From assembly GCA_002049545.1 (NCBI GenBank), contig LLYT01000001.1, positions 5,605-69,604 on the forward strand: a stretch of DNA of 64,000 nucleotides, in the 5' to 3' direction. Positions 2,750-62,506 of the stretch are shown here, piece after piece. Position numbers and translations under genes: made by a program. Numbering within the stretch: position 1 is the first letter of the stretch; each line of letters begins with the position of its first letter. The DNA comes from Deltaproteobacteria bacterium tcs-42. Lineage in GTDB: Bacteria; Desulfobacterota; Desulfuromonadia; Desulfuromonadales; Geopsychrobacteraceae. The notes beneath the pieces are model-generated. The model was not told the origin of the DNA. It did not search any database and saw only the letters and a program-made list of their open reading frames with translations.

Positions 2750-4063
2750 ATGGATGTGCCGGTTAAGATCTGGAATCGAGAAGCTGAGTGTCTGCCCCGG
2801 GAAGAGCTACGTCAACTGCAGCTCAAACGTCTGCAGCAGACTCTAACTCTGGTTGCCAATAATGTTCCTTGCTACCAGGCAAAGTTCAAAGAATCGGGTT
2901 TCCAACCCGGTGACCTGAAAACCCTGAAAGATTTACAGCATCTTCCATTTACCAGCAAAGAAGATCTGCGGGTCAATTATCCCTATGGGATGTTTGCCGT
3001 CCCGATGCGTGAAGTGGTCAGAATTCATTCTTCATCGGGGACAACCGGCAAGCCGACCGTTGTCGGTTATACCAAAGCCGACATTAATACCTGGACCGAA
3101 CTGGTTGCCCGCTTTATGACCGCCGCTGGAGTCACCCCGGAAGACATCGTCCATATCGCGTTTGGTTATGGTCTCTTCACCGGTGCTTTTGGACTCCATT
3201 ATGGCTCTGAGGCCATTGGAGCCTCTGTTATCCCCATCTCTGGCGGCAATACTGAAAAGCAATTGATGATCATGCAGGATTACCGTTCCTCGGCGCTCGT
3301 CTGTACCCCCTCATACGGGTTGACACTGGCTGATCGAATCGAAAAACAGGGGATTGACCCACGCTCCCTCGCATTACGGGTTGGGCTGTTCGGAGCAGAA
3401 CCCTGGAGTGAGCAGATGCGGGTTGAACTTGAACAGCGTCTGGGAATTCTCGCAACCGACAATTACGGCCTGTCCGAAATTATGGGCCCCGGAGTGGCCG
3501 GGGAGTGCCTTTTCAAGCAGGGGATGCATTTAGCCGAAGATCACTTTCTCGCCGAGATCATCGATCCTGATACAGGTGAGGTCTTGCCTGACGGCTCTGT
3601 CGGAGAACTGGTCATCACCAGTCTGACCAAACAGGCATTTCCGATGATCCGCTATCGAACTCGAGATATCACCCGATTAAACTATGCTGTTTGCGAATGT
3701 GGCCGCACATTGGCGAGAATGGAAAAAACCCGTGGCCGAACCGATGATATGTTGATTATCAAAGGGGTCAACGTTTTCCCGACGCAGATCGAAGAAGTCC
3801 TGTTCCAGATCGAAGGGTGTGAACCCCATTACCAATTGATTGTTGATCGTGCCAACAACATGGATTCACTTGAAGTCCAGGTGGAGGTGAATGAAAACAT
3901 CTTTTTTGATGAGATGAAACAACAACGTCAATTTGTTGTTCAGGCAGAAAAACGGCTGGCGACTGTTCTGGGTGTCAGTGCCAAGGTTAAACTGGTGGAA
4001 CCGGCGAGCATCACACGCCACGAAGGAAAAGCGGTCCGGGTTATCGACCGGCGACAGCAATAA
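2750..4063 (+). CDS. paaK: Phenylacetate--CoA ligase family protein (paralog 2)
   Basis: [21 protein letters not shown] motifs; clearly homologous to 936-2243. Confidence 0.88.
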
Positions 4064-4133
4064 CCGCCAATTTTCTTGACAAGACAGGACGAATAAAAGA
4101 TAATTCGCGGCGTTTGAAGAAACAAAACAATAA

Positions 4134-4210
4134 CGGGATGTGGCGCAGTCTGGTAGCGCACTTGACTGGGGGTCAAGGGGCCGGAGGTTCAAATCCTCTC
4201 ATCCCGACCA
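4134..4210 (+). tRNA. tRNA-Pro(GGG)
   Basis: CGGGATG...CATCCCG acceptor stem, D loop GTCTGGTAG, anticodon arm CTTGA-CTGGGGG-TCAAG, GGTTCAAATCC T arm, encoded CCA end. Confidence 0.97.
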
Positions 4211-4215
4211 ATAAA

Positions 4216-4258
4216 AACAAGGACTTACCCTTTTAGGTTGAGTCCTTGTTCTGTTTTT
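4216..4258. terminator. Probable bidirectional intrinsic terminator after the tRNA
   Basis: AACAAGGACT...AGTCCTTGTT stem flanked by A and T runs, between convergent tRNA and kinase gene. Confidence 0.65.
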
Positions 4259-4274
4259 GAGTACATCTCACGTT

Positions 4275-12365: not shown

Positions 12366-12878
12366 ATGAAAAAAATCTACCTGGCGGGCCCTGATGTTTT
12401 TGAACCCAACGCCGTTGAAGTGGGTGCACAGTTGAAGCAACTTGCAGCAGAGTATGGCTTTATTGGCCTTTTTCCCCTTGACAATGCTATTTCTGCCAAA
12501 CAAACACCCCATGAAACCGCCAGAGCGATCCGTGATGCCAATATCAAACTGATAGAATCAGCAGATATCATCATGGCCAACCTGAACCCGTTTCGTGGTG
12601 TGGAACCAGACTCTGGAACTGTTTTTGAGGTTGGCTTCGCGACAGCACTGAAAAAACATGTTTACTGCTATGCGGCGGATTGTCGTGAAATGATCGAAAG
12701 AATACGCGACAAACAACAATTGTCTGCCGCTGCAACATGCTGTCAAGATGGAAAACTTATTGAAGATTTCAACCTTTCGCACAATTTGATGATGATCGAT
12801 CTGGTGGTGGCGGTGAATGCTGAATCGTGTTTAGCGTATATCGCAAAGGAGCAGGGTACGGGGAAAAATGAGATTTGA
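12366..12878 (+). CDS. Nucleoside 2-deoxyribosyltransferase family protein
   Basis: KIYLAGPDVF, DSGTVFEVGFA, NLMM motifs; start moved to ATG 12366. Confidence 0.85.
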   Translation: MKKIYLAGPDVFEPNAVEVGAQLKQLAAEYGFIGLFPLDNAISAKQTPHETARAIRDANIKLIESADIIMANLNPFRGVEPDSGTVFEVGFATALKKHVYCYAADCREMIERIRDKQQLSAAATCCQDGKLIEDFNLSHNLMMIDLVVAVNAESCLAYIAKEQGTGKNEI

Positions 12879-13095
12879 CCCGGATCGCCACTCCATCCGC
12901 TTGCGGAATTACATTTATTCTACCCTTGATGCTTTCCCATGGGATGTTTCGGATAACGCCCCTTTATTTCATTTTAACAGGCAGGTTCATGAGTTCAGTT
13001 CAGTGTGAAGTAGCTTGAACTTGCTTCCCAGTTTTTTTTAAAGAATCTTCAAATGTGGTGATCGGTTTTGTCTCTTTTGCCACCTATCTTGCCTT

Positions 13096-13995
13096 TTATG
13101 CTTGCTTAAGTTTAGATTTCAGCGGCCAGCGTGCGATCAAAACGATCAGGCCTGAAAAAATCAACCCTATGCCACTAAGGGCTTGGCCATTAAGCTGCTC
13201 ACCGAGAACGACGATCCCTAACAGCGCCGCAGTCATCGGCTCAGCCAGAGTCAGGGTCACAGTTGTCGATAATTGCACCGTTTTCAGACCACGGACAAAC
13301 AACCAATAGGAAAGTGCCATTGTCGCAATCCCCAAGTGGAGAACCACACCGATTGCCCGAGGTTGCAATAGCCAGTTTATGTCACAATTGAGCAGAAGCG
13401 GGGATAAAATAATCGCTCCGCCACAGACTACCAGTGCCATCACCGCATTTGGTGGGTGTTTCTCCACCAGCCCCTTGATCATCAAGGAGTAGGTTGAGTA
13501 GGATGCCCCCGCGCCTATAGCCAGCACGATACCGACAAAATCAATGCGGATATCACCACCGTTAAAGCTGAGGAACATACAGCCACAAACCGCCAGCACG
13601 GTCGCTGCGTACCAGCGCCTACTCAAGCGCTCTCGGCGAAAGACCCGCCCCAGAATACCACCAAAGACAGGAGCACTGCCGATACCGATGATCGTGCCAA
13701 TGGCAACACCTGTTTTGGCTACGGCAGCAAAGAAGCATAACTGATAGCTGGCGGTAAAAGCTGCAGCCCCCAACAGGAGCGTCCAGTTCCAATCTTTGAA
13801 CGCACCCAGCTCTCGGTTGTATAACGCTAAAATGAGCAAAGCAACGCCTCCGATCAGAAGACGCATTGCGCCGATAACCTTTGGATCAAAACCAAGCGGC
13901 GAAAAAGCCTGCGCCGTGCCGGTCGTTCCCCAGAGCAGGGCTGCTCCAAGGATATACCAGATCCCGGCATAAGAGTGCTGCCTATGCATAATCAA
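13096..13995 (-). CDS. EamA/DMT family transporter
   Basis: About 10 hydrophobic helices, LWGTTG and LAEPMTA motifs; GGGAGG RBS. Confidence 0.85.
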   Translation of the reverse strand: MIMHRQHSYAGIWYILGAALLWGTTGTAQAFSPLGFDPKVIGAMRLLIGGVALLILALYNRELGAFKDWNWTLLLGAAAFTASYQLCFFAAVAKTGVAIGTIIGIGSAPVFGGILGRVFRRERLSRRWYAATVLAVCGCMFLSFNGGDIRIDFVGIVLAIGAGASYSTYSLMIKGLVEKHPPNAVMALVVCGGAIILSPLLLNCDINWLLQPRAIGVVLHLGIATMALSYWLFVRGLKTVQLSTTVTLTLAEPMTAALLGIVVLGEQLNGQALSGIGLIFSGLIVLIARWPLKSKLKQA

Positions 13996-21414: not shown

Positions 21415-22832
21415 GCAATAAGCAAAAAGAACTCCCTCAGACTTTGCCACGTTGGGAAGTGCCTGACAGTTGGAAATGGGTCAGTCTTGCTGATGTTGGG
21501 CAGGTTATTACAGGTAATACCCCTCCGACTTCTGACAAAAATAATTATGGGAATGATATCCCCTATGTAAAACCCCCGGAACTGGTGGATCGTGGGATTT
21601 GGACAACGCCCAATGGTTTGTCTGAAAAGGGTGCTTCCATTGCAAGAACCCTTCCTGCTGGTGCTGTACTTGTCTCTTGTATTGGCGGCCTTGGGAAAAC
21701 GGGTCTTGCAAAAGTACCAGTCGCATTCAATCAACAAATTAACGCAATCATTTTCAATGAGTGTGTCATTCCTGAATATGGTTTCTACTATGCTCAAACC
21801 TTAAATGAATGGCTCCAGGGGGTTTCCTCTGCGACTACTCTTCCGATAGTAAATAAGGGTAAATTTCAAAGAGCACCAATTCCTATTGCTCCTCCAGAGC
21901 AACAAAAAAGCATCGTTGCGGAAATCGAAAAGCAATTCTCCCGCCTCGACGAAGCCGTCGCCAATCTCAAGCGCGTCAAGGCCAACCTCAAACGCTACAA
22001 AGCCGCCGTCCTCAAAGCCGCCGTCGAAGGCAAGCTCACCGAAGAATGGCGTAAACAAAACCCCGATGTTGAACCAGCCGAGAAACTGCTGGAGCGGATT
22101 CTTGCCGAACGGCGTGAGAAATGGCAGGGGAGAGGGAAGTACAAAGAACCCGCTGCGCCGGATACCACCGATCTGCCGGAATTGCCTGAGGGGTGGGGTT
22201 GGTCCAACTTTGAGCAGCTCTCAGAAGCGATTCCCAATTCGCTTAAGGCTGGCCCATTTGGATCAGCTTTAAAGAAGTCCTTTTATGTTCCAGAAGGTTA
22301 TAAGGTTTATGGTCAGGAGCAAGTCATACGCGAAGACCCATATTATGGTGACTACTTCATTGACGAAGAACGTTATGAAAGCCTTAAATCTTGCGCCATC
22401 AAGCCGGGAGATATGCTTATAAGCTTGGTTGGGACAATTGGTCGTGTACTGATTTTGCCAGAAGATAGCGAGCCGGGAATAATCAATCCTCGCTTAGTAA
22501 AAATAAGTCTAAATACAGATATTGTTGAGCCTTTGTATATCAAGATTTTTCTCCAATCTCCGTTTGTAAAATACCTCTTCGCCCTGGCTTCCCATGGTGG
22601 AACTATGGATATTTTAAATCTTGGAATCTTGAAGGGAATACCTGTCCCTATTCCGCCTCTTCTAGAGCAAAAAGCAATATTGAATGAATTCGCTAGTTTT
22701 TCTTCGGTTGAGGAGAGATTGGAAGATACGGTGGGGGCAAATCAGGCGAGAAGTAATAGGTTGCGTCAGTCAATTTTGAAAAAAGCTTTCTCCGGTCAAC
22801 TGCTGCCAAGTTCTTACGTCGCTGAGAAGTAA
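21411..22832 (+). CDS. hsdS: Type I RM specificity subunit with two TRDs
   Basis: IPIAPPEQQKSIVAEIEKQFSRLD central region; PVPIPPLLEQ...LRQSILKKAFSG C-terminal region; GTG start overlaps hsdR stop. Confidence 0.92.
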   Translation: MSNKQKELPQTLPRWEVPDSWKWVSLADVGQVITGNTPPTSDKNNYGNDIPYVKPPELVDRGIWTTPNGLSEKGASIARTLPAGAVLVSCIGGLGKTGLAKVPVAFNQQINAIIFNECVIPEYGFYYAQTLNEWLQGVSSATTLPIVNKGKFQRAPIPIAPPEQQKSIVAEIEKQFSRLDEAVANLKRVKANLKRYKAAVLKAAVEGKLTEEWRKQNPDVEPAEKLLERILAERREKWQGRGKYKEPAAPDTTDLPELPEGWGWSNFEQLSEAIPNSLKAGPFGSALKKSFYVPEGYKVYGQEQVIREDPYYGDYFIDEERYESLKSCAIKPGDMLISLVGTIGRVLILPEDSEPGIINPRLVKISLNTDIVEPLYIKIFLQSPFVKYLFALASHGGTMDILNLGILKGIPVPIPPLLEQKAILNEFASFSSVEERLEDTVGANQARSNRLRQSILKKAFSGQLLPSSYVAEK

Positions 22833-22843
22833 AGGGGTTTGCT

Positions 22844-23545
22844 ATGAAATCTGAAAAGCTATGTCACATCAATATTTATTGCGACGAAAGCAGGCACACT
22901 TCTAACAGTGAAGATCCCTATATGGTTATTGGCGCTCTCGCCTGTACGCGTGAAAAAAAACAGGAAATTTATCACGTCATAAACCTGCTAAGAAAAAAGT
23001 ACAATGTTTGGAAAGAATTCGGCTGGAAAACTTTGTCGCCAAGTCGGAAGGATTTTTATTGGGAACTGCTTGAGCTTTTCCGTAATTCTGCTGATTTGAG
23101 TTTTCGCTGTCTTGTAGTCGATAGGAATGTTCTGGATCATGAGCAATACAGCGACGGTGATTCAGAGCTTGGTTTTTACAAGCTTTATTACCAGATGTTA
23201 GTGCATTGGTTGCAGCCGCAATGTGCTTATCACCTTTATCTTGATTGGCAGCAGAACAGAGAACAGGGACGTTTTCGGGATTTAGGTCATATTCTAGAGC
23301 GAAAGCTTTCTGGCCGAGCCAAAATTGAATGTCTTGAGCCGGTAAGCTCCAAAGAGCAGCACCTTGTCCAATTGTGTGATCTGTTTATTGGGGCGGTTGG
23401 ATACGCTTGGAATACCAGGGCGGGAAGTGACACCAAGGTTGAGTTTTGCAATGCATTGGCCGCGAACATGGAAATGTCTTCTTTGAAGGTGAGTACCTAC
23501 AAAAGTGAACAGAAATTCAATATCTTTCATTTTATAGGTCGCTGA
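22844..23545 (+). CDS. DUF3800 domain protein (RNase H-like acidic motifs)
   Basis: IYCDES N-terminal motif, YLD mid motif, VQLCDLFIGA C-terminal motif. Confidence 0.8.
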   Translation: MKSEKLCHINIYCDESRHTSNSEDPYMVIGALACTREKKQEIYHVINLLRKKYNVWKEFGWKTLSPSRKDFYWELLELFRNSADLSFRCLVVDRNVLDHEQYSDGDSELGFYKLYYQMLVHWLQPQCAYHLYLDWQQNREQGRFRDLGHILERKLSGRAKIECLEPVSSKEQHLVQLCDLFIGAVGYAWNTRAGSDTKVEFCNALAANMEMSSLKVSTYKSEQKFNIFHFIGR

Positions 23546-51705: not shown

Positions 51706-52980
51706 CTACAGAAGAACCCGCTCCAGGTGTTTAACCAGAAAATCAATCTCTTCATCGCTGATATTAAGTGGTGGGGAAATGCGGATTGTGTGACCATGAC
51801 TGTCATTGACAATCAATCCAAGATCGAGAAGCTGACGACAGAAATCCATAGCATTTCCTTTAACAACTTCGATCCCGATAAACAGCCCTTTCCCGCGCAC
51901 TTCTTTGACATGTGGAGATTTTTCGGCAATTTTTTCGATGGCTGCTTTCAGTTTTTTCCCCTGCAGGGCTGAACTTTCAACCAGTTTTTCTTCTTCTATG
52001 ACGGTCAGAGCAGCAATCCCGGCAATGCAGGCGAGTGGGTAGCCACCGAAAGTCGACCCATCAGAACCGACCTTGAACGCCATATCCATCAACTCACTGT
52101 TGGTCATGAAAATCGACAGTGGCACCAAACCACCCGATAAAGCCTTTCCAAGAACCAGACCATCAGGTACGACATTTTCATGCTCAAAGCAGAAACGTTT
52201 TCCGGTACGCCCCAGACCAACCTGAATTTCATCAAAAACCAGCAGCAGATCTTCTTGATCAGCAATATCCCTTAAACCTTGCAGAAATCCCTGCGGGGGA
52301 ACCAGCATACCGCCCTCCCCTTGCATCGGCTCAACCAGGATACCGCAGGTGTTTTTATTCACCAGTTTTTTAACATCTTCAAGATTGCCGAATTCTGCCG
52401 AAACAAATCCGGGTGTCAGCGGCCCGAACCCTTCCCGGTATTTTTTTGTCGAGGAGAAAGAAATAACGGTGATCATGCGACCGTGAAAATTATTGTCGAA
52501 GATGATAATTTCTTGTTTGCCATCTTCAATCCCTTTTTTCTTCCAGCCGTAATAACGCATCATCTTGATGGCCGTTTCAACCGATTCTACCCCTCCGTTC
52601 TTGGGCAACACCTTATTCCCTTTATTACCGAAACGGGGAGCAAGCTGCGGAGCAAAATTGGCGGCTTTTTCAAGGAAGACACCAAGGGGATCGGTATAGA
52701 CAACATTTGAGATAACTGATGCATAGTTACCAATCAATGCTTCAGTCATAGCATGAACTATTTTCGGATGATGATGTCCAGGATTTGCTGCCGAATAAGC
52801 CGCCAGACAATCAAGATACTGACGTCCGCTGGCATCGGTCAACCAACATCCTTTAGCCTGACGTACAACCAGATTCAGCCGGTCGTAATGGTGGGCACCA
52901 TAAGTTTCCTCAAAATTAACAATTTTATCGTCAGCTACCGTTGCGCAGGCTGACATTAAACCGATATTGGGATTATACAT
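51706..52980 (-). CDS. rocD: Ornithine aminotransferase-like class III omega-aminotransferase
   Basis: AYSAANPGHHHP, NFHGR, EPMQGEGG, DEIQVGLGRTG, LGKALSGG; AAGGAG RBS before ATG 52980. Confidence 0.85.
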   Translation of the reverse strand: MYNPNIGLMSACATVADDKIVNFEETYGAHHYDRLNLVVRQAKGCWLTDASGRQYLDCLAAYSAANPGHHHPKIVHAMTEALIGNYASVISNVVYTDPLGVFLEKAANFAPQLAPRFGNKGNKVLPKNGGVESVETAIKMMRYYGWKKKGIEDGKQEIIIFDNNFHGRMITVISFSSTKKYREGFGPLTPGFVSAEFGNLEDVKKLVNKNTCGILVEPMQGEGGMLVPPQGFLQGLRDIADQEDLLLVFDEIQVGLGRTGKRFCFEHENVVPDGLVLGKALSGGLVPLSIFMTNSELMDMAFKVGSDGSTFGGYPLACIAGIAALTVIEEEKLVESSALQGKKLKAAIEKIAEKSPHVKEVRGKGLFIGIEVVKGNAMDFCRQLLDLGLIVNDSHGHTIRISPPLNISDEEIDFLVKHLERVLL

Positions 52981-53138
52981 GGCGACTCCTTGATGAAAAA
53001 TCATACAAACAGTATGTGTTGCTACCTAGATAACAACATACCATAAAGAGAGTATTTGTCAATAATTTTGCTAACTATGCTATGCTTGGCTGGTGTCACA
53101 TTTGACGGCAAGTTGGCTGCTGTATTGAAGGAGAGTAA

Positions 53139-53927
53139 ATGGTGGAATCATACATAATGACTGAATTTGGTTTTTCACAGTATGAAACATCCTGCTATAT
53201 GGCGCTGGTAGCTCACCATCCATCAAATGGATCGCAGCTGAGCAAGCTTTCAGGAATTGCCCGATCCCGAATTTATGATGTACTGAACACCCTGAGTCGC
53301 AAAGGGCTGGTTTTTGAAATAGAACAGGGGAAGTATGTTCCGTTGCCACCCCAGGAACTGAAAAAACGGCTGAAAAGCCGATTCGAATCAAATCTTCACA
53401 GTTTTGCAGAAGAGCTCGAAGCAGCGACAACTGTGACAGAATACGAATATATTCTAACCCTGAGGGGATATGACGAAGTCATTCAAAAAGCTATTGAAAT
53501 TATTGATCATGCTGAAAAAGAACTCTATATCAGGCTATTTCCACCCTGCGGAAAAAAACTTGCCCCGCATATAGATAAAGCCGCCGCACGGGGGGTCGGA
53601 ATCCGCTATGTCTGCATGGGTTCCATGGTGCACAATTTTGAGATTCAGATCGAGCATCCCGATTCACAGGAGCTGATTCATAAAATTGGCGGAGAGTCGG
53701 TTGATATCATTGCTGATAAAGAAGAAGCGCTGATCGGGATGTTCGAACTGGGGAAAGAAGACCTTTCCCCGTTTATCTGGACCAAGAACAAATGGTTTGT
53801 GATCGGCAATCGTGACAGTTTGCGGCACGATTTTTACCACTATTTTCTCAATAAAACCTATGACTGCAACGAACAACTTACCGTTGAGGAAAAGAACATC
53901 TACGAATTTATCAAAGCTGATGAGTGA
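53139..53927 (+). CDS. TrmB family transcriptional regulator
   Basis: FGFSQYETSCY, SGIARSRIYDVLNTLSRKGLV wHTH plus effector domain. Confidence 0.85.
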   Translation: MVESYIMTEFGFSQYETSCYMALVAHHPSNGSQLSKLSGIARSRIYDVLNTLSRKGLVFEIEQGKYVPLPPQELKKRLKSRFESNLHSFAEELEAATTVTEYEYILTLRGYDEVIQKAIEIIDHAEKELYIRLFPPCGKKLAPHIDKAAARGVGIRYVCMGSMVHNFEIQIEHPDSQELIHKIGGESVDIIADKEEALIGMFELGKEDLSPFIWTKNKWFVIGNRDSLRHDFYHYFLNKTYDCNEQLTVEEKNIYEFIKADE

Positions 53928-54107: not shown

Positions 54108-55307
54108 CTACACCCGTTCAAGAACCAGAGAAACTCCCTGTCCGACCCCAACACACATAGTACACAAAGCCCGCTTGGCACCGCTGTGCAAAAGCTGATG
54201 AGCCGCCGTGGTCGCAAGCCGGGCACCACTCATTCCCAAAGGATGTCCCAGAGCAATAGCCCCACCAAGAGGATTGATCCGCAGGTCATCATCGGCAATA
54301 CCAAGCTCACGGGTACAGGCCAGAGATTGCGCTGCAAAAGCTTCATTCAATTCGATAATATCAAAATCATTAAACCCCAGACCAAGCCGTTTTAACAATT
54401 TTTGTGTCGCTGGAACCGGGCCGAGCCCCATGATACGCGGTGGCACACCGGCCGAAGCCATACCACATATCCTGGCTACAGGCTTGAGGTTATACCGCGT
54501 GGCAGCCTGCTCCGAAGCAATCAGCAATGCTGCCGCACCATCATTAACCCCAGATGCATTCCCCGCAGTAACCGTACCGTCAGGAAACAGAACTTTGAGT
54601 TGACTCAACTTTTCCAGTGAAGTTAAACGCGGATGTTCATCCTTATCAACAATCACAGCCTCACCTTTACGCTGCGGAACCCGGACCGACACAATCTCAT
54701 GCGCCAACCGTCCGTCAGCCTGGGCAGCAGCCGCCTTGCTCTGGCTCCAATGGGCAAATTGATCCTGATCTTCACGACTGATTTTGAATTCACGAGCGAG
54801 ATTCTCTGCCGTTTCGGGCATTGAATCGGTACCGTAGAGAGCTTTGAACTGCGGATTAATAAAGCGCCAGCCAATGGTCGTGTCATAAACCTCGGCGTTG
54901 CGGGAGAAAGCAGTTGTCGCCTTGCCGATAACAAAAGGGGCCCTGGACATGCTCTCTACACCACCGGCAATAATCAATTCAGCATCTCCGGCTTTGATTG
55001 CCTGAGCAGCACTACCAACAGCATTAAGACCAGAAGCACAGAGGCAATTGATGGTACTGGCAGGTACACTGACAGGTAATTCTGCCAGCAGTGAAGCCAT
55101 CCGAGCCACATTGCGATTATCTTCACCCGCCTGGTTAGCACAACCAAGAACCACATCATCAACCGCTTCCCAGTCGACATCAGGATTGCGTGCCATCAAT
55201 GCTTTGAGTGGGACGACAGCCAGATCGTCAGGACGCACAGAAGAAAGTGAACCGCCATAGCGTCCGACGGGAGTACGGATTGCATCACAAATAAATACTT
55301 CACTCAT
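54108..55307 (-). CDS. pcaF: 3-oxoadipyl-CoA thiolase-like (PcaF/PaaJ clade)
   Basis: GCANQAGEDNRNVARM, ESMSRAPFV, DTTIGWRF, NEAFA, GHPLGMSG, CVGVGQG. Confidence 0.85.
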   Translation of the reverse strand: MSEVFICDAIRTPVGRYGGSLSSVRPDDLAVVPLKALMARNPDVDWEAVDDVVLGCANQAGEDNRNVARMASLLAELPVSVPASTINCLCASGLNAVGSAAQAIKAGDAELIIAGGVESMSRAPFVIGKATTAFSRNAEVYDTTIGWRFINPQFKALYGTDSMPETAENLAREFKISREDQDQFAHWSQSKAAAAQADGRLAHEIVSVRVPQRKGEAVIVDKDEHPRLTSLEKLSQLKVLFPDGTVTAGNASGVNDGAAALLIASEQAATRYNLKPVARICGMASAGVPPRIMGLGPVPATQKLLKRLGLGFNDFDIIELNEAFAAQSLACTRELGIADDDLRINPLGGAIALGHPLGMSGARLATTAAHQLLHSGAKRALCTMCVGVGQGVSLVLERV

Positions 55308-55342: not shown

Positions 55343-56671
55343 TTACAGCTTTGCCTTAATTTTACGGAAGCCACCAAGCATAACCTCAGTCAGGATATCA
55401 ATTTCATTATCAGTGATTGCCGTCGAGAGAACTCCGGAGCAGGTATTGATCATCATCAGGCCGTTATCAAACAGGTGATCGAGCATGATTTCAAGGTGAC
55501 GATTTTCAGCTTCGCTCATGAATGCTTCACGGTAATTCGCCGGGGCAGTTGCTTTCATATGGACCCGGAACATCGATCCGCCACCTGTGACGCAGGCGGG
55601 AACAGCGGCAATATTTATTGCTTCAGCGATACTGCTACGAGCTCGGTCTGCCAAACGGTTAAGTTTCTCCACCGCGGCTTGATCAAACAACTCCATCGAA
55701 ACCCGTCCTGCGGTCATGGTGATTGGGTTTGCAGAGAAAGTTCCGGAAAGGGGAAAAACTATATTATCAACCAGAGGATTCATCACCTCCATAATCTCTT
55801 TTCGACCAGCGATAGCTCCAACCGGGAACCCGCCACCGATCATCTTTCCCATGGCAGTCAAGTCTGGATGAATATCGTACCACTGTTGCGCACCACCATA
55901 ATTGGAACGAAATGAAATCACTTCGTCATACACCAGCAGGGTATTATTTCTACGAGTCCAATCGTAAAGAGCCTGGATAAAATCTGCAGTGGCAGGGACA
56001 AGTCCGACCCGGTGGGGCAGTAGATCAATCAATACACAGGAGAGCTCAGCAGCATGATGATCAAGAATTTCAATCGCCCTTTCTGGATCATTAAAAGGGA
56101 TGATAACGACATCATTCAGCGCAGAAGCTGGGGTCCCCCGGGAGACGGTAACACTTACGGGGTTTTTCGCATCACCCCAGTTTGACGGCGCTGCCGTCTG
56201 GCTGACTTCAGCATAATCGTAGAGCCCGTGGTAAGCCCCTTCCACCTTGGCAATTTTGGGTCGACCGGTATAAGCTCTGGCTGCCTTCAGGCAACTCATC
56301 ACCGCCTCGGTTCCGGAATTAACAAACCGAACCTTATCAAAGCCGCGATTACGACTGCACAGATGCTCGGCATAGAGAATCTCTGCTTCGGTTGCCAGGG
56401 TGAATGCTGTCCCCTTCTGCAATTGTTCTGTAACGGCTGCAATAACTTGTGGATGAGCGTGGCCATGAATCAAGGACGCCATATTGTTGGCAAAATCGAT
56501 CCGCTTGACTCCCTCAATATCGGTGACGTAGCAACCCTCGCCCCGTTCAGCGTACAGGGGATGTGGGCTACGTAGCACCGTATTGCGACTGACCCCGCCA
56601 GGCATAACCTGACAACCACGTTGATAGAGTTTTGCACTTCTGGAGGGTTCTGTTTTGATGCCATTTTCCAT
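55343..56671 (-). CDS. Class III PLP aminotransferase, GSA-aminomutase/beta-transaminase-like
   Basis: MPGGVSR, FVNSGTEA, YHG, DEVISFR, AMGKMIGGGFPVGA, SGTFSANP; divergent from true HemL. Confidence 0.8.
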   Translation of the reverse strand: MENGIKTEPSRSAKLYQRGCQVMPGGVSRNTVLRSPHPLYAERGEGCYVTDIEGVKRIDFANNMASLIHGHAHPQVIAAVTEQLQKGTAFTLATEAEILYAEHLCSRNRGFDKVRFVNSGTEAVMSCLKAARAYTGRPKIAKVEGAYHGLYDYAEVSQTAAPSNWGDAKNPVSVTVSRGTPASALNDVVIIPFNDPERAIEILDHHAAELSCVLIDLLPHRVGLVPATADFIQALYDWTRRNNTLLVYDEVISFRSNYGGAQQWYDIHPDLTAMGKMIGGGFPVGAIAGRKEIMEVMNPLVDNIVFPLSGTFSANPITMTAGRVSMELFDQAAVEKLNRLADRARSSIAEAINIAAVPACVTGGGSMFRVHMKATAPANYREAFMSEAENRHLEIMLDHLFDNGLMMINTCSGVLSTAITDNEIDILTEVMLGGFRKIKAKL

Positions 56672-56680
56672 ATGCGAAAC

Positions 56681-57337
56681 CTACCCTTTTGCAGGCAATA
56701 ATTTGCCAGCTGTTCTCTGCTGGACGTAATCAAAACTGACACCTGGAGCCAATTCCAAAACCTTGAAACCTGCCGGAGTCACGTCCAGTACCGCAAGGTC
56801 GGTGTAAATTCGATCAACAACATTTTTCCCGGTGAGTGGATAGGTGCACGATTCAACCAGCTTAGGACCTCCATCCGTGGTACAGTGCTGAGTGATAACA
56901 TAAATAGTTTTAACCCCGGCGACCAGATCCATGGCGCCACCCACTGCAGGAATGGCATCAGGTTCACCGGTTGACCAGTTAGCCAGATCCCCCTGTTCGG
57001 AAATCTGCATTGCCCCCAAAACACAAACATCGATGTGCTGGCCACGAATCATAGCGAAGCTGTCGGCATGGTGAAAGAATGCGGCGCCAGGAATTGTGGT
57101 CACTGCCTTCTTCCCCGCGTTGATCAACTCTGGATCTTCTCCCCCTGAAGCAGGAACAGGCCCCATTCCCAGCAGACCATTTTCGGTATGATAGATCACC
57201 TCACGCCCTTCCGGGACATGCTGGGCAACCTTCTCGGGGATACCAATACCCAGATTGACATACGAACCATCAGGAATATCCAAGGCAGCCCGTTTGGCCA
57301 TCTCATCCCTGTTCCAGCCGATAATATCTGCTGTCAT
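56681..57337 (-). CDS. pcaJ: 3-oxoacid CoA-transferase subunit B (PcaJ-like)
   Basis: VNLGIGIP, HTENG catalytic Glu, VGGAMDLV. Confidence 0.82.
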   Translation of the reverse strand: MTADIIGWNRDEMAKRAALDIPDGSYVNLGIGIPEKVAQHVPEGREVIYHTENGLLGMGPVPASGGEDPELINAGKKAVTTIPGAAFFHHADSFAMIRGQHIDVCVLGAMQISEQGDLANWSTGEPDAIPAVGGAMDLVAGVKTIYVITQHCTTDGGPKLVESCTYPLTGKNVVDRIYTDLAVLDVTPAGFKVLELAPGVSFDYVQQRTAGKLLPAKG

Positions 57338-58044
57338 GGATAAAATCTCCCTTCAGCAACCAGCTTTGATTCCTGCTCCGGGTTAGCGACAGTGACAATA
57401 CGGTCAACAAAAATTCCAGGGGTCACAACAATTTCGGGATCAATCTCACCAGCGGTAACCATCCTCTCGGCCTGAACAATCGTGGTCTCTGCCGCCATCG
57501 CCATGATCGGGGCAAAGTTACGTGCGGTTTTGTTGTAGATCAGGTTGCCATAGCGATCGGCCTGTTTAGATTTAATCAGGGCAAAATCGGCTTTCAAACC
57601 ATATTCCATAACGTAGTCACGACCAGCAAAATGACGTTGCTCTTTTCCCTCTGCCAGCGGGGTTCCAACAGAAGTCGCAGTGTAAAAAGCCGGAACACCA
57701 GCACCACCGGCACGAATCCGTTCAGCCAGGGTTCCCTGGGGTACCAGTTCCAGATCTATTTTGCCGCTGCGGTACAATTCGGGGAATACCTTGGAACCGA
57801 CGGTGCGTGGATAGGAGCAGATCATTTTGGCGACCCGGCCATTTTCAATCAAAGCTGCCAACCCGACGTGACCGCTGCCGGTATTATTATTCACCACGGT
57901 CAGGTTTTGAGCCCCTTGATCAATCAAGGCATGGATCAGCTCAATCGGACTTCCTGCCTCACCGAATCCACCAATCATCACGGTCGCGCCATCAAAGATA
58001 TCGGCAACCGCTTTCGCCGGTGAATCAACTTGTTTATCAATCAT
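57334..58044 (-). CDS. pcaI: 3-oxoacid CoA-transferase subunit A (PcaI-like)
   Basis: DGATVMIGGFG, PQGTLAERIRAGGAG, KTARNFAPIMA; start moved to ATG 58044. Confidence 0.82.
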   Translation of the reverse strand: MIDKQVDSPAKAVADIFDGATVMIGGFGEAGSPIELIHALIDQGAQNLTVVNNNTGSGHVGLAALIENGRVAKMICSYPRTVGSKVFPELYRSGKIDLELVPQGTLAERIRAGGAGVPAFYTATSVGTPLAEGKEQRHFAGRDYVMEYGLKADFALIKSKQADRYGNLIYNKTARNFAPIMAMAAETTIVQAERMVTAGEIDPEIVVTPGIFVDRIVTVANPEQESKLVAEGRFYP

Positions 58045-58118
58045 CTTGAAAAACCATCCGTTTATCCATATCAGGGGCGAGCCACCGTCCCCGTCCATTT
58101 TTTGATCCCGACATTATC

Positions 58119-58158: not shown

Positions 58159-59760
58159 TCAGGCTAAACGTTTACGTAATGCTTCAGACAGGTTCTCTTC
58201 TATTTCTTTCAACTCATCCTCGAAAAAATAGTTTTCAGTGTCAAACGGAAGCAACAAGTCGATCTTGTTTTTTTCCTCATCGTATTTAGCGTGAAATACG
58301 CGATTCATCCACTCCATATTGCGTGCTTCAGTAAACTGCAGGGCAAAACATTTCTCACCACCAATAACCGAGGTGCCAAGAATTGCCAGTTTGCCTGCCG
58401 AAATAGTCATCGAAATATGTCTTGATGGACGGTTGATTGAGGCCAGAGAATTGTAAATTTTACTAAAAACCCGTTCGATATCGGCCATTGGCGCGGCGAA
58501 GTAAAGGTGTTCACCGGTCGGGCGAGCGGCATACATAGAATGGAATCCAATCCCCAGCATCGCCAGGATATTAGCCAGATCAATCCAGTTCTGTGCCGAT
58601 TTATTGACATCAACTTTGCCATTTTTATCGGTAAATAAGCTGATGTGGTTCATGATCGGGCTCTGACTGCGAACCATGACTCCATGCGCCTTCAGTCGCC
58701 TGATAGCGGCAATAGTGCGCGGATTCAGTAATTCGCGCGGGGTAGAAAAATGAGCCATCCACGCCATCTGGATACCATTCTCATAAAGGAGGTCGTAAAG
58801 TTCGAACATCTTCTCGAATTTTTTGGTCAGGATCATCTCTGGTTGAAACGTCAACGCACGAGAACCAAGCCTGATGGTACGGATATGAGACAGTTCCGGA
58901 TCCTCAATAATCGGGGTGATATACTGGGCAAACCGACTGGCTGGCATAAAGCCGCCATCACCACCGGTAATCAGGATATCGGTCACCCCTTTATGGAGCT
59001 TCAGATAGTTGTGCAGCTGAGCTATGTCTTTCTGCAGAAACATATCTTCATCTCCACGCACCTGGGCGTGGCGGAAACAATAGGTACAGAATGAAAAACA
59101 ATTCTGGGTCGTCGTATCAAACACCAGCTGACATTGGGGATATTTGTGCTGACTCCCCTCAAGAAACTCAACCTCCCCCCTATCGTTGTCAAACCAGGGC
59201 TTGTTCAGCTGCTGATTGCCATCGTGAGGATTGGTCTTTTCACTGTAATCGACAACAATACGAGCCCGCTCTTCTGCAGTTTCTGCCTCAACATAAGCCC
59301 TGGTTGCTTCGGGGTCGATCATCCCCGGCTGCGGCAACACCAGTTGATAAAGCGAATCAGTTTTGTAATTATCCCAGTTGATAATATTTAACGAATGGCT
59401 GGTAGCGAGAAACCGATAGACCTCGATATAAAATTCCCGTTCCTTAATTTTATCCAGCTTGACCCCATTTTCTTCAAGGATCTGACAGACTTTTCTGAAT
59501 CCATCAAGCCCGGCGTAATTACTGCCAGCTTTAAAGAGAAATGGTCTGGTTTCACGTAACCCGGAGTGCTGCGGATAATTCACCTCAAGCCGGTTCAAAA
59601 CCCCAGCCGGCAACAGCCGTTCCAACTTGACAATATTGCGGGCCTCTTCACTGAAGTGGTAACGCTCTATCAATGCATTAATATCATCCCCGTTAAAAGA
59701 AGGGTTCACACTGCCTGAAGTTGCCTGGCTTACAATCGAAAGGTTGCCTGGACTTACCAT
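58159..59760 (-). CDS. KamA-like radical SAM/PLP 2,3-aminomutase (non-canonical, 533 aa)
   Basis: HKYP...CFSFCTYCFRH (CxxxCxxC), ILITGGDG, IRLGSR, AHFSTPREL, SAGK candidate PLP Lys. Confidence 0.8.
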   Translation of the reverse strand: MVSPGNLSIVSQATSGSVNPSFNGDDINALIERYHFSEEARNIVKLERLLPAGVLNRLEVNYPQHSGLRETRPFLFKAGSNYAGLDGFRKVCQILEENGVKLDKIKEREFYIEVYRFLATSHSLNIINWDNYKTDSLYQLVLPQPGMIDPEATRAYVEAETAEERARIVVDYSEKTNPHDGNQQLNKPWFDNDRGEVEFLEGSQHKYPQCQLVFDTTTQNCFSFCTYCFRHAQVRGDEDMFLQKDIAQLHNYLKLHKGVTDILITGGDGGFMPASRFAQYITPIIEDPELSHIRTIRLGSRALTFQPEMILTKKFEKMFELYDLLYENGIQMAWMAHFSTPRELLNPRTIAAIRRLKAHGVMVRSQSPIMNHISLFTDKNGKVDVNKSAQNWIDLANILAMLGIGFHSMYAARPTGEHLYFAAPMADIERVFSKIYNSLASINRPSRHISMTISAGKLAILGTSVIGGEKCFALQFTEARNMEWMNRVFHAKYDEEKNKIDLLLPFDTENYFFEDELKEIEENLSEALRKRLA

Positions 59761-59955
59761 GAGAACTCCTTGTCTGCCTATATTGTGCTACTATTTTAAA
59801 AGTTTATTATGTAGCTGTGATGGTGTAAAACGATATAAACATATATTGATGACTTTGATGCATCAATATTGACAGATGCCCTCTGCTGCACCTGGCTTTC
59901 CGTCCAGATGCCTGGAATAACTGCAATACCCTTTACCGATTCTCAATGCCAGGCC

Positions 59956-61488
59956 TTAAATATCAAACTTGATCCCTTGGGCTAATGGCAATGTCCTGCC
60001 GTAATTAATGGTGTTAGTCTGACGCCGCATATACGCCTTCCAGGCATCAGAGCCCGATTCACGGCCACCACCAGTCTCTTTTTCACCACCAAAGGCTCCG
60101 CCGATTTCAGCCCCAGAAGTTCCAATATTGACGTTGGCAATACCACAATCTGAACCAGCTGCAGAGAGGAATTCTTCAGCTTCCAAGAGGTTCTGGGTAA
60201 ATATGGCAGATGACAATCCCTGCACAACGCAATTATGTAATTCAATCGCATTTTCAACGTCACCCCGATACTTGATCAGATAAAGAATTGGCGCAAAGGT
60301 CTCTTCCTGGACAATTTCGTAACTGTTTTCAGCCTCTACAACGGCTGGATTCACGTAACAGCCCGATTCATAACCTTCCCCCTCAAGAACTTCACCACCA
60401 CAAATAACCGAGCCCCCCTCGTCCTCTGCGCGTTCAAGAGCCCTTTTGAATTCACCAACGGCAATTGTATCAATCAGCGGGCCAACATGATTGTTTTCAT
60501 CCAACGGATCACCGATCTTCAGGCCACTGTAGGCTTTGACAATGGTTTCCTTGATCTTGTCGTAGATTGATTCATGAATAATAAGCCGGCGAGTTGAAGT
60601 ACAACGCTGACCGGCGGTGCCCACCGCGCCAAAAACGATGGCTGGCAGTGCAACTTTAAGATCTGCATTTGGAGTCAGAATAATTGCATTGTTGCCGCCA
60701 AGTTCGAGTATCGATTTACCAAACCGTTTAGCGATGATTTGCGCACCGCGCCGCCCCACCTCGGTCGAACCGGTGATCGATATCAAAGGCACCCGTTTGT
60801 CGTTGAGCAGTTTTTCTCCGACAGAAGACCCACGTCCGATAATCAGGCTGAATAATCCTTCGGGAAGGTCATTGGCCTTAATAACCTCTGCCAGAATATT
60901 TTGTACCGCGATGGCCGTCAGAGGCACCTTCGATGAGGGTTTCCACAAGTTTGTGTCGCCACAAACCGTGGCAATCATGGTGTTCCATGACCACACTGCA
61001 ACAGGAAAATTGAACGCGGTGATTGTGCCAACGATTCCAAGCGGATGGTATTGATCGTACATTCGATGTTGTTCACGTTCTGAAACCATCGTGGAACCGT
61101 AAAGCTGCCGAGACTGACCAACCGCGAAGTCACAGATATCAATCATCTCCTGAACCTCGCCCTTCCCTTCCTGTAGTGATTTGCCCATTTCGTAGGAAAC
61201 AAGAGCACCAAGAGCATCTTTATATCTGCGCAGTTGTAAACCAATCTGGCGAACAATTTCACCCCGTTTCGGTGCTGGGACTACTTTCCATTGCTTGAAC
61301 GCCTCAACTCCCCTGGCAACCAGCTTGTCGTAGTCTTCTTCCGAGGCAAGGTAAACACTGGCGATATACTTGCCATCAACGGGTGAAACAATCTTCAATT
61401 CCCCCTGATCGGTAGTGTCATTCCATTCAATACCGGTCGAAGCACCAAAATTCTTTTCCTTAATGCCGAGCTCTTGCATAAAATCCAT
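59956..61488 (-). CDS. Aldehyde dehydrogenase, ALDH7 / aminoadipate-semialdehyde (P6C) dehydrogenase-like
   Basis: [68 protein letters not shown]. Confidence 0.88.
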
Positions 61489-61660
61489 TCTATTTCTCCT
61501 TGATCAAAAATATGGATACGCCGATTTTCTAGTTTTTCAAAGGATAAGAAAAAACGAACTAAAGGTGAAATATTGTTTTCCTTTGAGGGATAAATGTATA
61601 AACTATAGCTCTTACCTCAATCAAAATTGTTTAACTAGCACTGAAGAGAGCGATATTGCG

Positions 61661-62506
61661 TTGGAACTTCGAGCCCTACGATATTTTGTTTCTGTCTATG
61701 AAGAATTGAGTTTGAGCCGTGCTGCAAAACGGTGCTTTGTAGCGCAACCATCAGTTTCAGCAGCGATTCATCAGCTGGAATCAGAACTCGATTGCCAGTT
61801 GTTTATTCGTCACTCCAAAGGAGTGAGTCCCACCCGGGATGGAAAAACCTTCTATCCCCATGCTATCAAAGTGATGGGCGATATCCAGGCGATGCAGCAG
61901 TTATTTCAAAATAAAGTTCCGTTACTGCCATTAAAAATCGGCCTCATGCCATTTTTATCCGGGGAGCGGATTGGACAAATTATCAAGGGATGGCTGGACA
62001 ATATTCAGGGATTGGACTTGACTGTTGTAGACTGGAACGAAGAGGCAGACGCAAGGATTGTTTCGAGCACAATGGTTTCGCAGAATGAAAGTTTCAACAA
62101 ACTCTGGTGTGATGAATATGTTCTCGCCATGCCGGCAGGACATCCACTGTCTCTGCAGAAAACTGTCAAGTTACGCCAACTGGATGGAGTCCCTTTTATC
62201 AGTCGAACTTTTTGTGATGCACTCGATTCGTGGAATTTTGCCATCCAGAAACAAAACATCCAGATCAATACGAAAGCGACCTTCAGTACTGAAGAATACG
62301 CACTGGATCTGGTTGCAGCAGGTCTCGGTATTTCGTTGGTTCCAAGTCATTCCACAACCCTGCGCACCGACATTATCACCCGGGAAATAAGTGATATACA
62401 CCTTGAACGTATCGTCGGGCTGGCATATAAAATTGATCATCCCCTGCCATCGCAACTATTAACCACGATCGACAAATTTAAAGATCGTATCGAAAGTGTC
62501 ACCTGA
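61661..62506 (+). CDS. LysR family transcriptional regulator, divergent from the ALDH gene
   Basis: (M)ELRALRYF...SLSRAAKRCFVAQPSVSAAIHQLE; TTG start after GAGAG. Confidence 0.92.
   Translation: MELRALRYFVSVYEELSLSRAAKRCFVAQPSVSAAIHQLESELDCQLFIRHSKGVSPTRDGKTFYPHAIKVMGDIQAMQQLFQNKVPLLPLKIGLMPFLSGERIGQIIKGWLDNIQGLDLTVVDWNEEADARIVSSTMVSQNESFNKLWCDEYVLAMPAGHPLSLQKTVKLRQLDGVPFISRTFCDALDSWNFAIQKQNIQINTKATFSTEEYALDLVAAGLGISLVPSHSTTLRTDIITREISDIHLERIVGLAYKIDHPLPSQLLTTIDKFKDRIESVT

Follow-up and report, generated by a model that had tools for sequence, protein, structure and literature searches.

A deep-branching KamA-like radical SAM enzyme, predicted to be a 2-aminoadipate 2,3-aminomutase, is encoded in a conserved five-gene catabolic cassette

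INTRODUCTION

The closest described relative of the enzyme considered here is lysine 2,3-aminomutase (LAM, or KamA; EC 5.4.3.2), a radical S-adenosylmethionine (SAM) and pyridoxal phosphate (PLP) enzyme of the TIGR00238 family, whose Clostridium subterminale representative is available as structure 2A5H. In LAM, Arg134 reportedly binds the alpha-carboxylate of the substrate and Asp293 and Asp330 the epsilon-ammonium group of lysine, while Lys337 is said to be the PLP lysine. Within the KamA family, a precedent for an acidic substrate is provided by the glutamate 2,3-aminomutase of Clostridioides difficile (Eam; TIGR04368), in which a Lys and an Asn reportedly take the place of the two lysine-binding Asp residues. 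Here, we describe a 533-residue KamA-like protein (P0001) encoded in a 64,000-nucleotide stretch of contig LLYT01000001.1 of Deltaproteobacteria bacterium tcs-42 (the window), where its gene is followed by those for the two subunits of a 3-oxoacid coenzyme A (CoA)-transferase, a class III aminotransferase, and a thiolase. The arrangement of these five genes, referred to as the cassette, and the residues lining the putative active site suggest that the enzyme acts on 2-aminoadipate rather than on lysine.

The canonical route of lysine degradation proceeds via 2-oxoadipate and glutaryl-CoA, with oxidative decarboxylation and flavin-dependent steps. Lysine fermentation (KamA, KamDE, Kdd, Kce, Kal/Kat, AtoAD, and thiolase) follows a logic like that proposed here, in which a radical aminomutase generates a beta-amino acid that is converted to a beta-keto acid and then to acetyl-CoA units, and a class III beta-transaminase (Kat) is reportedly used in one of its variants. 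In contrast to lysine fermentation, the cassette lacks a 5,6-aminomutase, a 3,5-diaminohexanoate dehydrogenase, and Kce; moreover, its substrate would be an oxidized product of lysine, 2-aminoadipate, and its products would be succinyl-CoA and acetyl-CoA instead of butyrate, acetate, and ammonia. The CoA-transferase A/B and the thiolase of the cassette belong to the same families as the PcaIJ CoA-transferase and the PcaF thiolase, which form the end of the beta-ketoadipate pathway. However, different from that pathway, the 3-oxoadipate of the cassette would derive from an amino acid through a beta-amino acid and not from aromatic ring cleavage, and the surroundings of the cassette are devoid of pca and cat genes for ring cleavage.

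RESULTS AND DISCUSSION

Placement of the KamA-like protein in the KamA superfamily

The KamA-like protein scored below the cut-offs of the curated models of the radical SAM and KamA families, namely, Pfam Radical_SAM PF04055 (20.2 bits; cut-off, 29.5), the NCBIfam KamA family TIGR00238 (62 bits; cut-off, 199.2), and the equivalogs for AblA (TIGR03820; 56.5 bits; cut-off, 525.4), EpmB (TIGR03821; 42 bits; cut-off, 369.3), and glutamate 2,3-aminomutase (TIGR04368; 51.7 bits; cut-off, 650). Considering together the equivalogs for AblA, EpmB, and the glutamate and arginine aminomutases, the scores range from 42 to 58 bits against cut-offs of 369 to 650, and the cut-off of every specific NCBIfam equivalog is 9 to 13 times higher than the bit score obtained. 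A plain sequence search of the PDB returned LAM 2A5H as the sole match, limited to residues 201 to 372, and the identity with LAM is just 16%.

More sensitive comparisons were based on a family profile built from 37 members, which was compared with a profile of the four canonical KamA paralogues found in the same genome. The hhalign alignment of the two profiles reached a probability of 99.3% over 303 columns, corresponding to residues 114 to 480 of the KamA-like protein. Furthermore, the AlphaFold (AF2) model computed from the 37-member alignment, with a predicted local distance difference test (pLDDT) value of 83.3 and a predicted template modeling score (pTM) of 0.86, retrieved LAM 2A5H as its top PDB match in Foldseek (E value of 3e-13, 432 columns, and target-normalized TM-score of 0.63), while the next radical SAM match, RlmN, followed with an E value of about 3e-4. 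Because of the hhalign probability and of the confident model having 2A5H as its best PDB match, we assign the protein to the KamA superfamily, in which it is a deep branch lying outside the KamA family as curated. The best explanation of these data is that it is a radical SAM, PLP-dependent amino acid 2,3-aminomutase belonging to a distinct and unnamed clade of the superfamily.

The protein database holds more than 1,300 homologues, mostly unnamed or labeled either "hypothetical protein" or "L-lysine 2,3-aminomutase," and copies 55 to 86% identical to the KamA-like protein are encoded in the genomes of 80 species. Given this number of homologues and the identity of 55 to 88% across phyla, the open reading frame (ORF) is real and did not arise by chance.

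Sequence motifs and active-site residues

A preliminary description of the gene, made from the sequence alone, had reported a protein of 533 residues with a CFSFCTYC cluster motif and without an obvious C-terminal Cys-rich zinc site, and our analysis agrees on all three features, adding that the gene lies on the minus strand. The motif occupies residues 221 to 228, and the only Cys residues of the protein are those at positions 92, 210, 221, 225, 228, and 471; C471, the sole Cys after residue 228, is not invariant in the 37-member alignment, so no C-terminal Cys cluster like that of LAM is present. The same description had noticed a long N-terminal extension. There is indeed an excess of length, since the cluster motif lies about 96 residues downstream of its LAM counterpart (C125 in 2A5H), but the profile alignment divides this offset between some 35 additional residues at the N terminus and an internal insertion of about 30 residues (positions 148 to 199, approximately). 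The insertion precedes the HKYP motif and bears the invariant sequence TNPHDGxQxLNKPW, which, like the additional N-terminal residues, distinguishes the family from LAM; residues 21 to 80 are predicted by the AF2 model to form a folded helical unit. As for the SAGK sequence at residues 454 to 457, presented as a departure from the usual GGGK, its occurrence was verified, but it can hardly be considered unusual in itself, since GGGGK is also missing from three of the genome's four canonical KamA paralogues. Since three of these four paralogues likewise lack the Cys cluster, both SAGK and the missing zinc site are less telling about the substrate than the loss of Asp residues described below.

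To transfer the residue positions of LAM onto the KamA-like protein, we relied on the AblA encoded by the same genome (453 residues; 774 bits with TIGR03820; GGGGK and Cys cluster present), whose numbering minus 26 coincides exactly with that of 2A5H. In the hhalign alignment, C125, C129, and C132 of LAM correspond to C221, C225, and C228, Arg134 to Arg230, and Lys337 to Lys457, the last of which also aligns with the GGGGK lysine of the genome's own AblA. All of these residues, as well as G266-G267-D268, are invariant in the 37 family sequences. Thus, the fold, the CxxxCxxC, GGD, and HxYP motifs, the Arg for the alpha-carboxylate, and a lysine at the position of the PLP lysine are common to LAM and the KamA-like protein, and, by analogy, the radical and PLP-assisted 1,2-amino shift is presumably the same.

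The part of the site that in LAM faces the distal end of the substrate is different. LAM Asp293 is replaced by an invariant arginine, Arg413, and the position of LAM Asp330 corresponds to a gap of one residue, located between S450 and M451, so that neither member of the lysine-binding Asp pair is present. The loss of both ammonium-binding Asp residues, together with the gain of an Arg, argues against lysine and in favor of a substrate with a distal carboxylate. In particular, the distal end of 2-aminoadipate, an isostere of lysine, bears the opposite charge, which would fit a one-for-one exchange of Asp with Arg. The solution also differs from that of Eam, as the KamA-like protein combines an Arg with a deletion, and the enzymes encoded downstream point to a C6 rather than a C5 acid.

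Conservation of the cassette

The conservation of the locus was evaluated by running the proteins of the window with tblastn against the loci of the 80 species and by clustering the flanking ORFs. The genes downstream of the aminomutase keep their order and strand in nearly all cases: CoA-transferase subunit A in 79 of 80 loci, subunit B in 77, the aminotransferase in 74, and the thiolase in 67, most of the missing genes being due to contig ends. These loci span about ten phyla, and the carriers include Desulfuromusa, Shewanella, Photobacterium, Motiliproteus, SAR324, Sumerlaeota, Planctomycetota, Acidobacteria, Aminicenantes, Actinomycetes, Rhodospirillaceae, and many Bacteroidales. Among 401 genomes of the phylum to which the window belongs, no orthologue was detected beyond the source genome, the 12 other matches belonging to a sister family (see below). 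In the window, the cassette genes are all codirectional, and the gaps between consecutive genes, from the aminomutase through CoA-transferase subunit A, subunit B, and the aminotransferase to the thiolase, are 60, -4, 9, and 35 bp.

The enzymes of the cassette are informative about its possible substrate. The thiolase exceeds the cut-offs for 3-oxoadipyl-CoA thiolase (Table 1) and matches the beta-ketoadipyl-CoA thiolase 6PCA with an E value of 9e-169, compared to about 1e-95 for acetoacetyl-CoA thiolases; a thiolase of the PcaF type argues for a C6 dicarboxylate. The nearest solved relative of the aminotransferase is the omega-transaminase 6K8H of Sphaerobacter thermophilus (E value of 6e-111), which has been used on beta- and gamma-amino acids (PMC10589169). 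The next-best PDB relatives are ForI, GSA aminomutases, and the beta-transaminases of Mesorhizobium and Variovorax.

Within 8 kb of the KamA-like gene, the window encodes an L-piperideine-6-carboxylate (P6C) dehydrogenase, the CoA-transferase A/B, the class III aminotransferase, the thiolase, LysR and TrmB regulators, an ornithine-aminotransferase-like (OAT-like) transaminase, and a dGTPase. As previously stated in the preliminary description, the genes expected beside a canonical KamA are absent: none of kamDE, ablB, and efp occurs among these neighbors, and the gene lies instead in a catabolic cassette of the beta-ketoadipate type. The P6C dehydrogenase gene precedes the KamA-like gene with a gap of 195 bp, and it represents the single copy above the NF050084 cut-off in the source genome. 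Considering all 80 loci, a P6C dehydrogenase is encoded within 8 kb in 19 to 20 of them (window included), and genes of the saccharopine dehydrogenase families (PF16653 and PF03435) lie beside the cassette in 17. Both types occur in Draconibacterium and Maribellus, where a saccharopine dehydrogenase gene on the opposite strand is followed by the aminomutase, CoA-transferase A and B, aminotransferase, thiolase, P6C dehydrogenase, and a second saccharopine dehydrogenase, all in one direction. Wherever pathway-specific neighbors are present, they always belong to the branch leading from lysine to 2-aminoadipate. Among the regulators, a PuuR-like XRE-cupin protein recurs at 13 loci and LysR at about 12, and a polar amino acid ABC transporter is found at two loci.

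Some loci deserve a separate description. In a metagenome-assembled genome (MAG) of Desulfobulbia (L019), which is the sole locus of the 80 without the CoA-transferase, transaminase, and thiolase downstream, the aminomutase homologue is 66% identical to the KamA-like protein, and a P6C dehydrogenase is encoded 3 kb upstream, with another aminotransferase in between. In five Shewanella loci (L009, L010, and L013 to L015), the flanks of the cassette contain two or three universal stress protein genes, a LysR gene, and a gene for a methyl-accepting chemotaxis protein; L009, L013, and L015 also have a generic aldehyde dehydrogenase gene about 3.5 kb upstream of the cassette, and these Shewanella genomes do not encode a P6C dehydrogenase of the ALDH7 type. 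No pathway-specific clue was obtained from the flanks of the Shewanella and Photobacterium cassettes, which consist of LysR, universal stress proteins, a chemoreceptor, a generic aldehyde dehydrogenase, and an amino acid permease.

Proposed function and pathway

On the basis of the active site and of the gene context, we suggest that the substrate of the KamA-like enzyme is most likely L-2-aminoadipate and its product 3-aminoadipate, an assignment that we regard as reasonably probable. The preliminary description had already indicated 2-aminoadipate as the substrate best fitting the neighboring genes, and this proposal gains support from the conserved cassette, from the PcaF-type thiolase, from the P6C and saccharopine dehydrogenase neighbors, and from the replacement of Asp293 with Arg, while it is weakened by the incomplete genome-wide co-occurrence with P6C dehydrogenase discussed below. 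The broader proposal, to which we give slightly better than even chances, is that the protein is the founding 2-aminoadipate 2,3-aminomutase and that, with the beta-transaminase and the PcaIJ- and PcaF-like steps, it forms a widespread, oxygen-independent, and redox-neutral branch of lysine catabolism passing through 3-aminoadipate and 3-oxoadipate.

The order of the steps that we infer, together with the substrate and the role of Arg413, is as follows. Lysine would be converted to 2-aminoadipate semialdehyde or P6C, and the ALDH7-type P6C dehydrogenase, encoded just upstream under the divergent LysR gene, would convert the semialdehyde to 2-aminoadipate. In the KamA-like enzyme, the [4Fe-4S] cluster held by the CxxxCxxC motif would reductively cleave SAM to give the 5'-deoxyadenosyl radical, and the substrate, bound to PLP as an external aldimine after release of the cofactor from Lys457, would be held by Arg230 at its alpha-carboxylate and by Arg413 at its distal carboxylate, where in LAM the ammonium group of lysine is bound by Asp293. 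Migration of the amino group from C2 to C3 would then yield 3-aminoadipate, which the GSAM-like beta-transaminase could turn into 3-oxoadipate; the PcaIJ/ScoAB-type CoA-transferase would produce 3-oxoadipyl-CoA with succinyl-CoA as the donor, and the PcaF-type thiolase would split it into succinyl-CoA and acetyl-CoA. From 2-aminoadipate onward, such a sequence would be redox neutral and would need no oxygen, which would suit an anaerobe.

The search of the source genome revealed no 2-aminoadipate transaminase above the cut-off, which, like the single P6C dehydrogenase gene beside the KamA-like gene, speaks for the link to lysine; no saccharopine dehydrogenase was revealed either. Because of the missing saccharopine dehydrogenase, the OAT-like transaminase can be considered a candidate lysine 6-transaminase, and our guess is that it could generate the semialdehyde from lysine. 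The gene for this transaminase and that for the TrmB family regulator (51706 to 53927) adjoin the operon, and both keep their place in two Desulfuromusa MAGs (L002 and L003).

Evidence against the proposed substrate and alternative explanations

Several observations weigh against 2-aminoadipate as the substrate. The first concerns the supply of this compound in other carriers. A P6C dehydrogenase was found in 29 of 50 further cassette genomes from many phyla (26 of them above the cut-off) and in 1 of 14 control genomes, which speaks for the link to lysine, but none was found in the other 21 of the 50, among which are six genomes of Shewanella and Photobacterium. With Shewanella corallii, which also lacks the enzyme, seven genomes of these two genera were searched, all with a negative result. 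In Marinifilum fragile, the P6C dehydrogenase gene is present elsewhere in the genome, away from the cassette. In a sample of 251 Bacteroidales genomes, of which 18 encode the aminomutase and 71 a P6C dehydrogenase, the latter occurs in 7 of 18 carriers and in 64 of 233 noncarriers (odds ratio, 1.7; Fisher P value, 0.29). The genome-wide linkage of the cassette to P6C dehydrogenase is therefore weak, being partial and below what was expected, and the incompleteness of MAGs accounts for only part of the missing genes. It follows that the many carriers without P6C dehydrogenase import 2-aminoadipate or obtain it otherwise, or else use another substrate. In addition, no dedicated transporter is conserved beside the cassette in the 80 loci.

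The second set of observations concerns Arg413 and derives from a sister family of about 450 residues, 31 to 34% identical to the KamA-like protein, which we detected in 12 of the 401 genomes of the same phylum (L086 to L093; for example, L087:7791-9185:+). This family is very large, with members in Ectothiorhodospira, Thiohalobacter, and others, and its annotations go no further than "KamA family radical SAM protein" or "lysine 2,3-aminomutase." It shares with the KamA-like family the NPHxxGQ insertion and residues R230, R413, R444, R447, K457, and R480, whereas it lacks the first 80 residues or so and presents ARDTGA in place of ARPTGEH. Since Arg413 is common to the sister family, where Arg444, Arg447, and Arg480 are invariant too, it cannot by itself define a specificity for 2-aminoadipate, and its role may be other than the binding of a distal carboxylate. 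Moreover, the sister family gene is solitary, with variable neighbors and no conserved context. It is possible to hypothesize that the residues beside Arg413 in the cassette family, judging from the ARPTGEH and ARDTGA sequences, may be more important than Arg413 itself.

According to a rival hypothesis, which we consider unlikely, the substrate of the 2,3-aminomutase is a different amino acid, and the cassette degrades the matching beta-keto acid. The candidates would be glutamate, converted through beta-glutamate to 3-oxoglutarate or acetoacetate; meso-diaminopimelate, converted through 3-oxo-6-aminopimelate to acetyl-CoA and gamma-glutamyl-CoA; and some other acidic or neutral amino acid. 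In favor of this hypothesis, the search for a P6C dehydrogenase was negative in many of the cassette genomes, 60 of the 80 core cassette loci have no lysine pathway gene nearby, peptidase, dipeptidase, and Mur ligase genes lie near some loci, and an Arg in the distal site is compatible with any substrate bearing a second carboxylate. However, the thiolase is closer by about 70 orders of magnitude to PcaF than to acetoacetyl-CoA thiolases, the pathway-specific neighbors are exclusively saccharopine dehydrogenase and P6C dehydrogenase, and the exchange of one Asp for one Arg would suit a compound isosteric with lysine; as for glutamate in particular, the score with the dedicated 2,3-aminomutase model is far below its cut-off.

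An improbable alternative is that a KamA fold is used here for a chemistry other than the alpha-to-beta shift, such as a different migration, an epimerization, or a lyase-type reaction on an intermediate or CoA ester of the cassette. The low identity with LAM, with scores below all curated thresholds, the extra N-terminal domain of about 80 residues, the invariant NPHDGxQ insertion, and the existence of a sister family without an aminomutase-type context would be in line with such a divergence. On the other hand, the residues required for LAM chemistry (the cluster Cys residues, GGD, the PLP lysine, and the Arg for the alpha-carboxylate) are all invariant, the beta-transaminase-like neighbor requires a beta-amino acid, which an aminomutase would provide, and every remaining step of the cassette already has its enzyme.

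Finally, a divergent but ordinary LAM (KamA/AblA) or EpmB, to which the shared fold and cofactor motifs and the label "L-lysine 2,3-aminomutase" given to some homologues in JGI and UniRef might lead, is effectively excluded by the scores with the AblA and EpmB models, by the absence of both lysine-binding Asp residues, one of which is now an Arg, by the presence in the same genome of a true AblA and of a further paralogue retaining the Asp pair, and by the lack of kamDE, ablB, efp, and epmA among the neighbors, in accordance with the preliminary view that the enzyme serves neither classical lysine fermentation nor osmolyte synthesis and is not EpmB.

Implications

In the literature that could be searched, which is incomplete, we found nothing connecting aminoadipate to an aminomutase or to 3-oxoadipate and no biochemical mention of 3-aminoadipate, the lone match to "beta-aminoadipic" being apparently a misprint for alpha in the title of a reference. 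Likewise, we encountered no paper and no curated protein family describing the route from 2-aminoadipate to succinyl-CoA and acetyl-CoA. The KamA-like enzyme thus appears to represent a new, substrate-divergent clade of a known kind of enzyme, placed in a catabolic module that is seemingly undescribed.

If 2-aminoadipate is indeed the substrate, it would represent the fourth substrate class for radical SAM/PLP aminomutases, after lysine, glutamate, and arginine, and 3-aminoadipate would become a new metabolite node. Many anaerobes and facultative anaerobes would be able to channel lysine carbon to succinyl-CoA and acetyl-CoA without oxidative decarboxylation and flavin-dependent steps, and the users of this route would include Desulfuromusa, Shewanella, Photobacterium, Draconibacterium, and Marinifilum, as well as Planctomycetota, Acidobacteria, and Sumerlaeota represented by MAGs. 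The current annotations as "hypothetical protein" or "lysine 2,3-aminomutase" would be corrected, and a biocatalyst would become available for making beta-aminoadipate, a building block akin to nylon precursors. Cultured carriers of the cassette exist, such as Draconibacterium orientale DSM 25947, Marinifilum fragile JCM 15579, and Shewanella corallii DSM 21332, which makes the claim directly testable.

Features of the window and KamA paralogues of the source genome

The positions of the genes and sequence elements of interest are reported in Table 1. For some of the neighboring genes, the annotated start is probably not the true one: CoA-transferase subunit A probably begins at Met19, at about 58044, and the LysR protein near 61661, its helix-turn-helix domain beginning at residue 83.

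Table 1. Genes, signals, and residues of the KamA-like locus, with positions in the window
Feature	Position	Strand	Basis and remarks
KamA-like radical SAM/PLP enzyme, 533 residues (P0001)	58159..59760	minus	ORF and translation; predicted 2-aminoadipate 2,3-aminomutase
Shine-Dalgarno sequence AAGGAG of the KamA-like gene	59766..59771	minus	Read from the sequence; 5 nucleotides ahead of the ATG
CFSFCTYC, residues 221 to 228	59077..59100	minus	CxxxCxxC motif for the [4Fe-4S]/SAM cluster; aligns with C125/C129/C132 of 2A5H
Arg230	59071..59073	minus	Aligned with LAM Arg134; invariant
GGD, residues 266 to 268	58957..58965	minus	SAM-binding motif; invariant
Arg413	58522..58524	minus	Position of LAM Asp293 (hhalign); invariant in the family and in the sister family
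Lys457 of SAGK (residues 454 to 457)	58390..58392	minus	Aligned with the PLP lysine, LAM Lys337; invariant
P6C (2-aminoadipate semialdehyde) dehydrogenase	59956..61488	minus	NF050084, 806.7 bits (cut-off, 730); would make 2-aminoadipate
3-Oxoacid CoA-transferase subunit A	57334..58098	minus	TIGR02429, 349.6 bits (cut-off, 128.5); best PDB match 3CDK, SCOT subunit A
3-Oxoacid CoA-transferase subunit B	56681..57337	minus	TIGR02428, 299.3 bits (cut-off, 243.55); catalytic TENG motif; 4-bp overlap with subunit A
Class III aminotransferase, GSAM/beta-transaminase group	55343..56671	minus	PF00202; predicted 3-aminoadipate transaminase; below every equivalog cut-off
3-Oxoadipyl-CoA thiolase (PcaF/PaaJ type)	54108..55307	minus	TIGR02430, 681.8 bits (cut-off, 597); NF006551, 702 bits (cut-off, 605); Cys90 nucleophile present
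OAT-like class III transaminase	51706..53004	minus	TIGR01885, 375.4 bits (cut-off, 378.4)
LysR-type regulator, divergent from the P6C dehydrogenase gene	61415..62506	plus	PF00126 and PF03466

The 195-bp region that separates the P6C dehydrogenase gene from the aminomutase gene contains a perfect 12-bp palindrome, TTGATGCATCAA (59855 to 59866), embedded in a longer AT-rich repeat, TCAATATTGATGCATCAAAGTCATCAATAT. The palindrome lies upstream of promoter-like hexamers and might act as the operator of an internal promoter; in the scan for terminators and promoters, sites were no more numerous than in shuffled sequence.

The four canonical KamA paralogues of the source genome are located on contigs C56, C63, C84, and C35 (L081 to L084). 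Besides the true AblA (L081), they comprise a 350-residue form with the Asp/Asp pair and an EGKGK sequence and two forms with non-lysine residues at the distal site (TNIGK and HDIGK). Contig C56 carries, between positions 3043 and 22876, the true AblA gene (12449 to 13423), two class III aminotransferase genes (3043 to 4263 and 8449 to 9690), and an aldehyde dehydrogenase gene (21545 to 22876), and may thus be a second locus related to lysine or beta-lysine. The 375-residue member of the four (L083:1145-2272) is encoded directly upstream of a glutamine synthetase-like gene, which suggests a function related to beta-amino acids or osmolytes.

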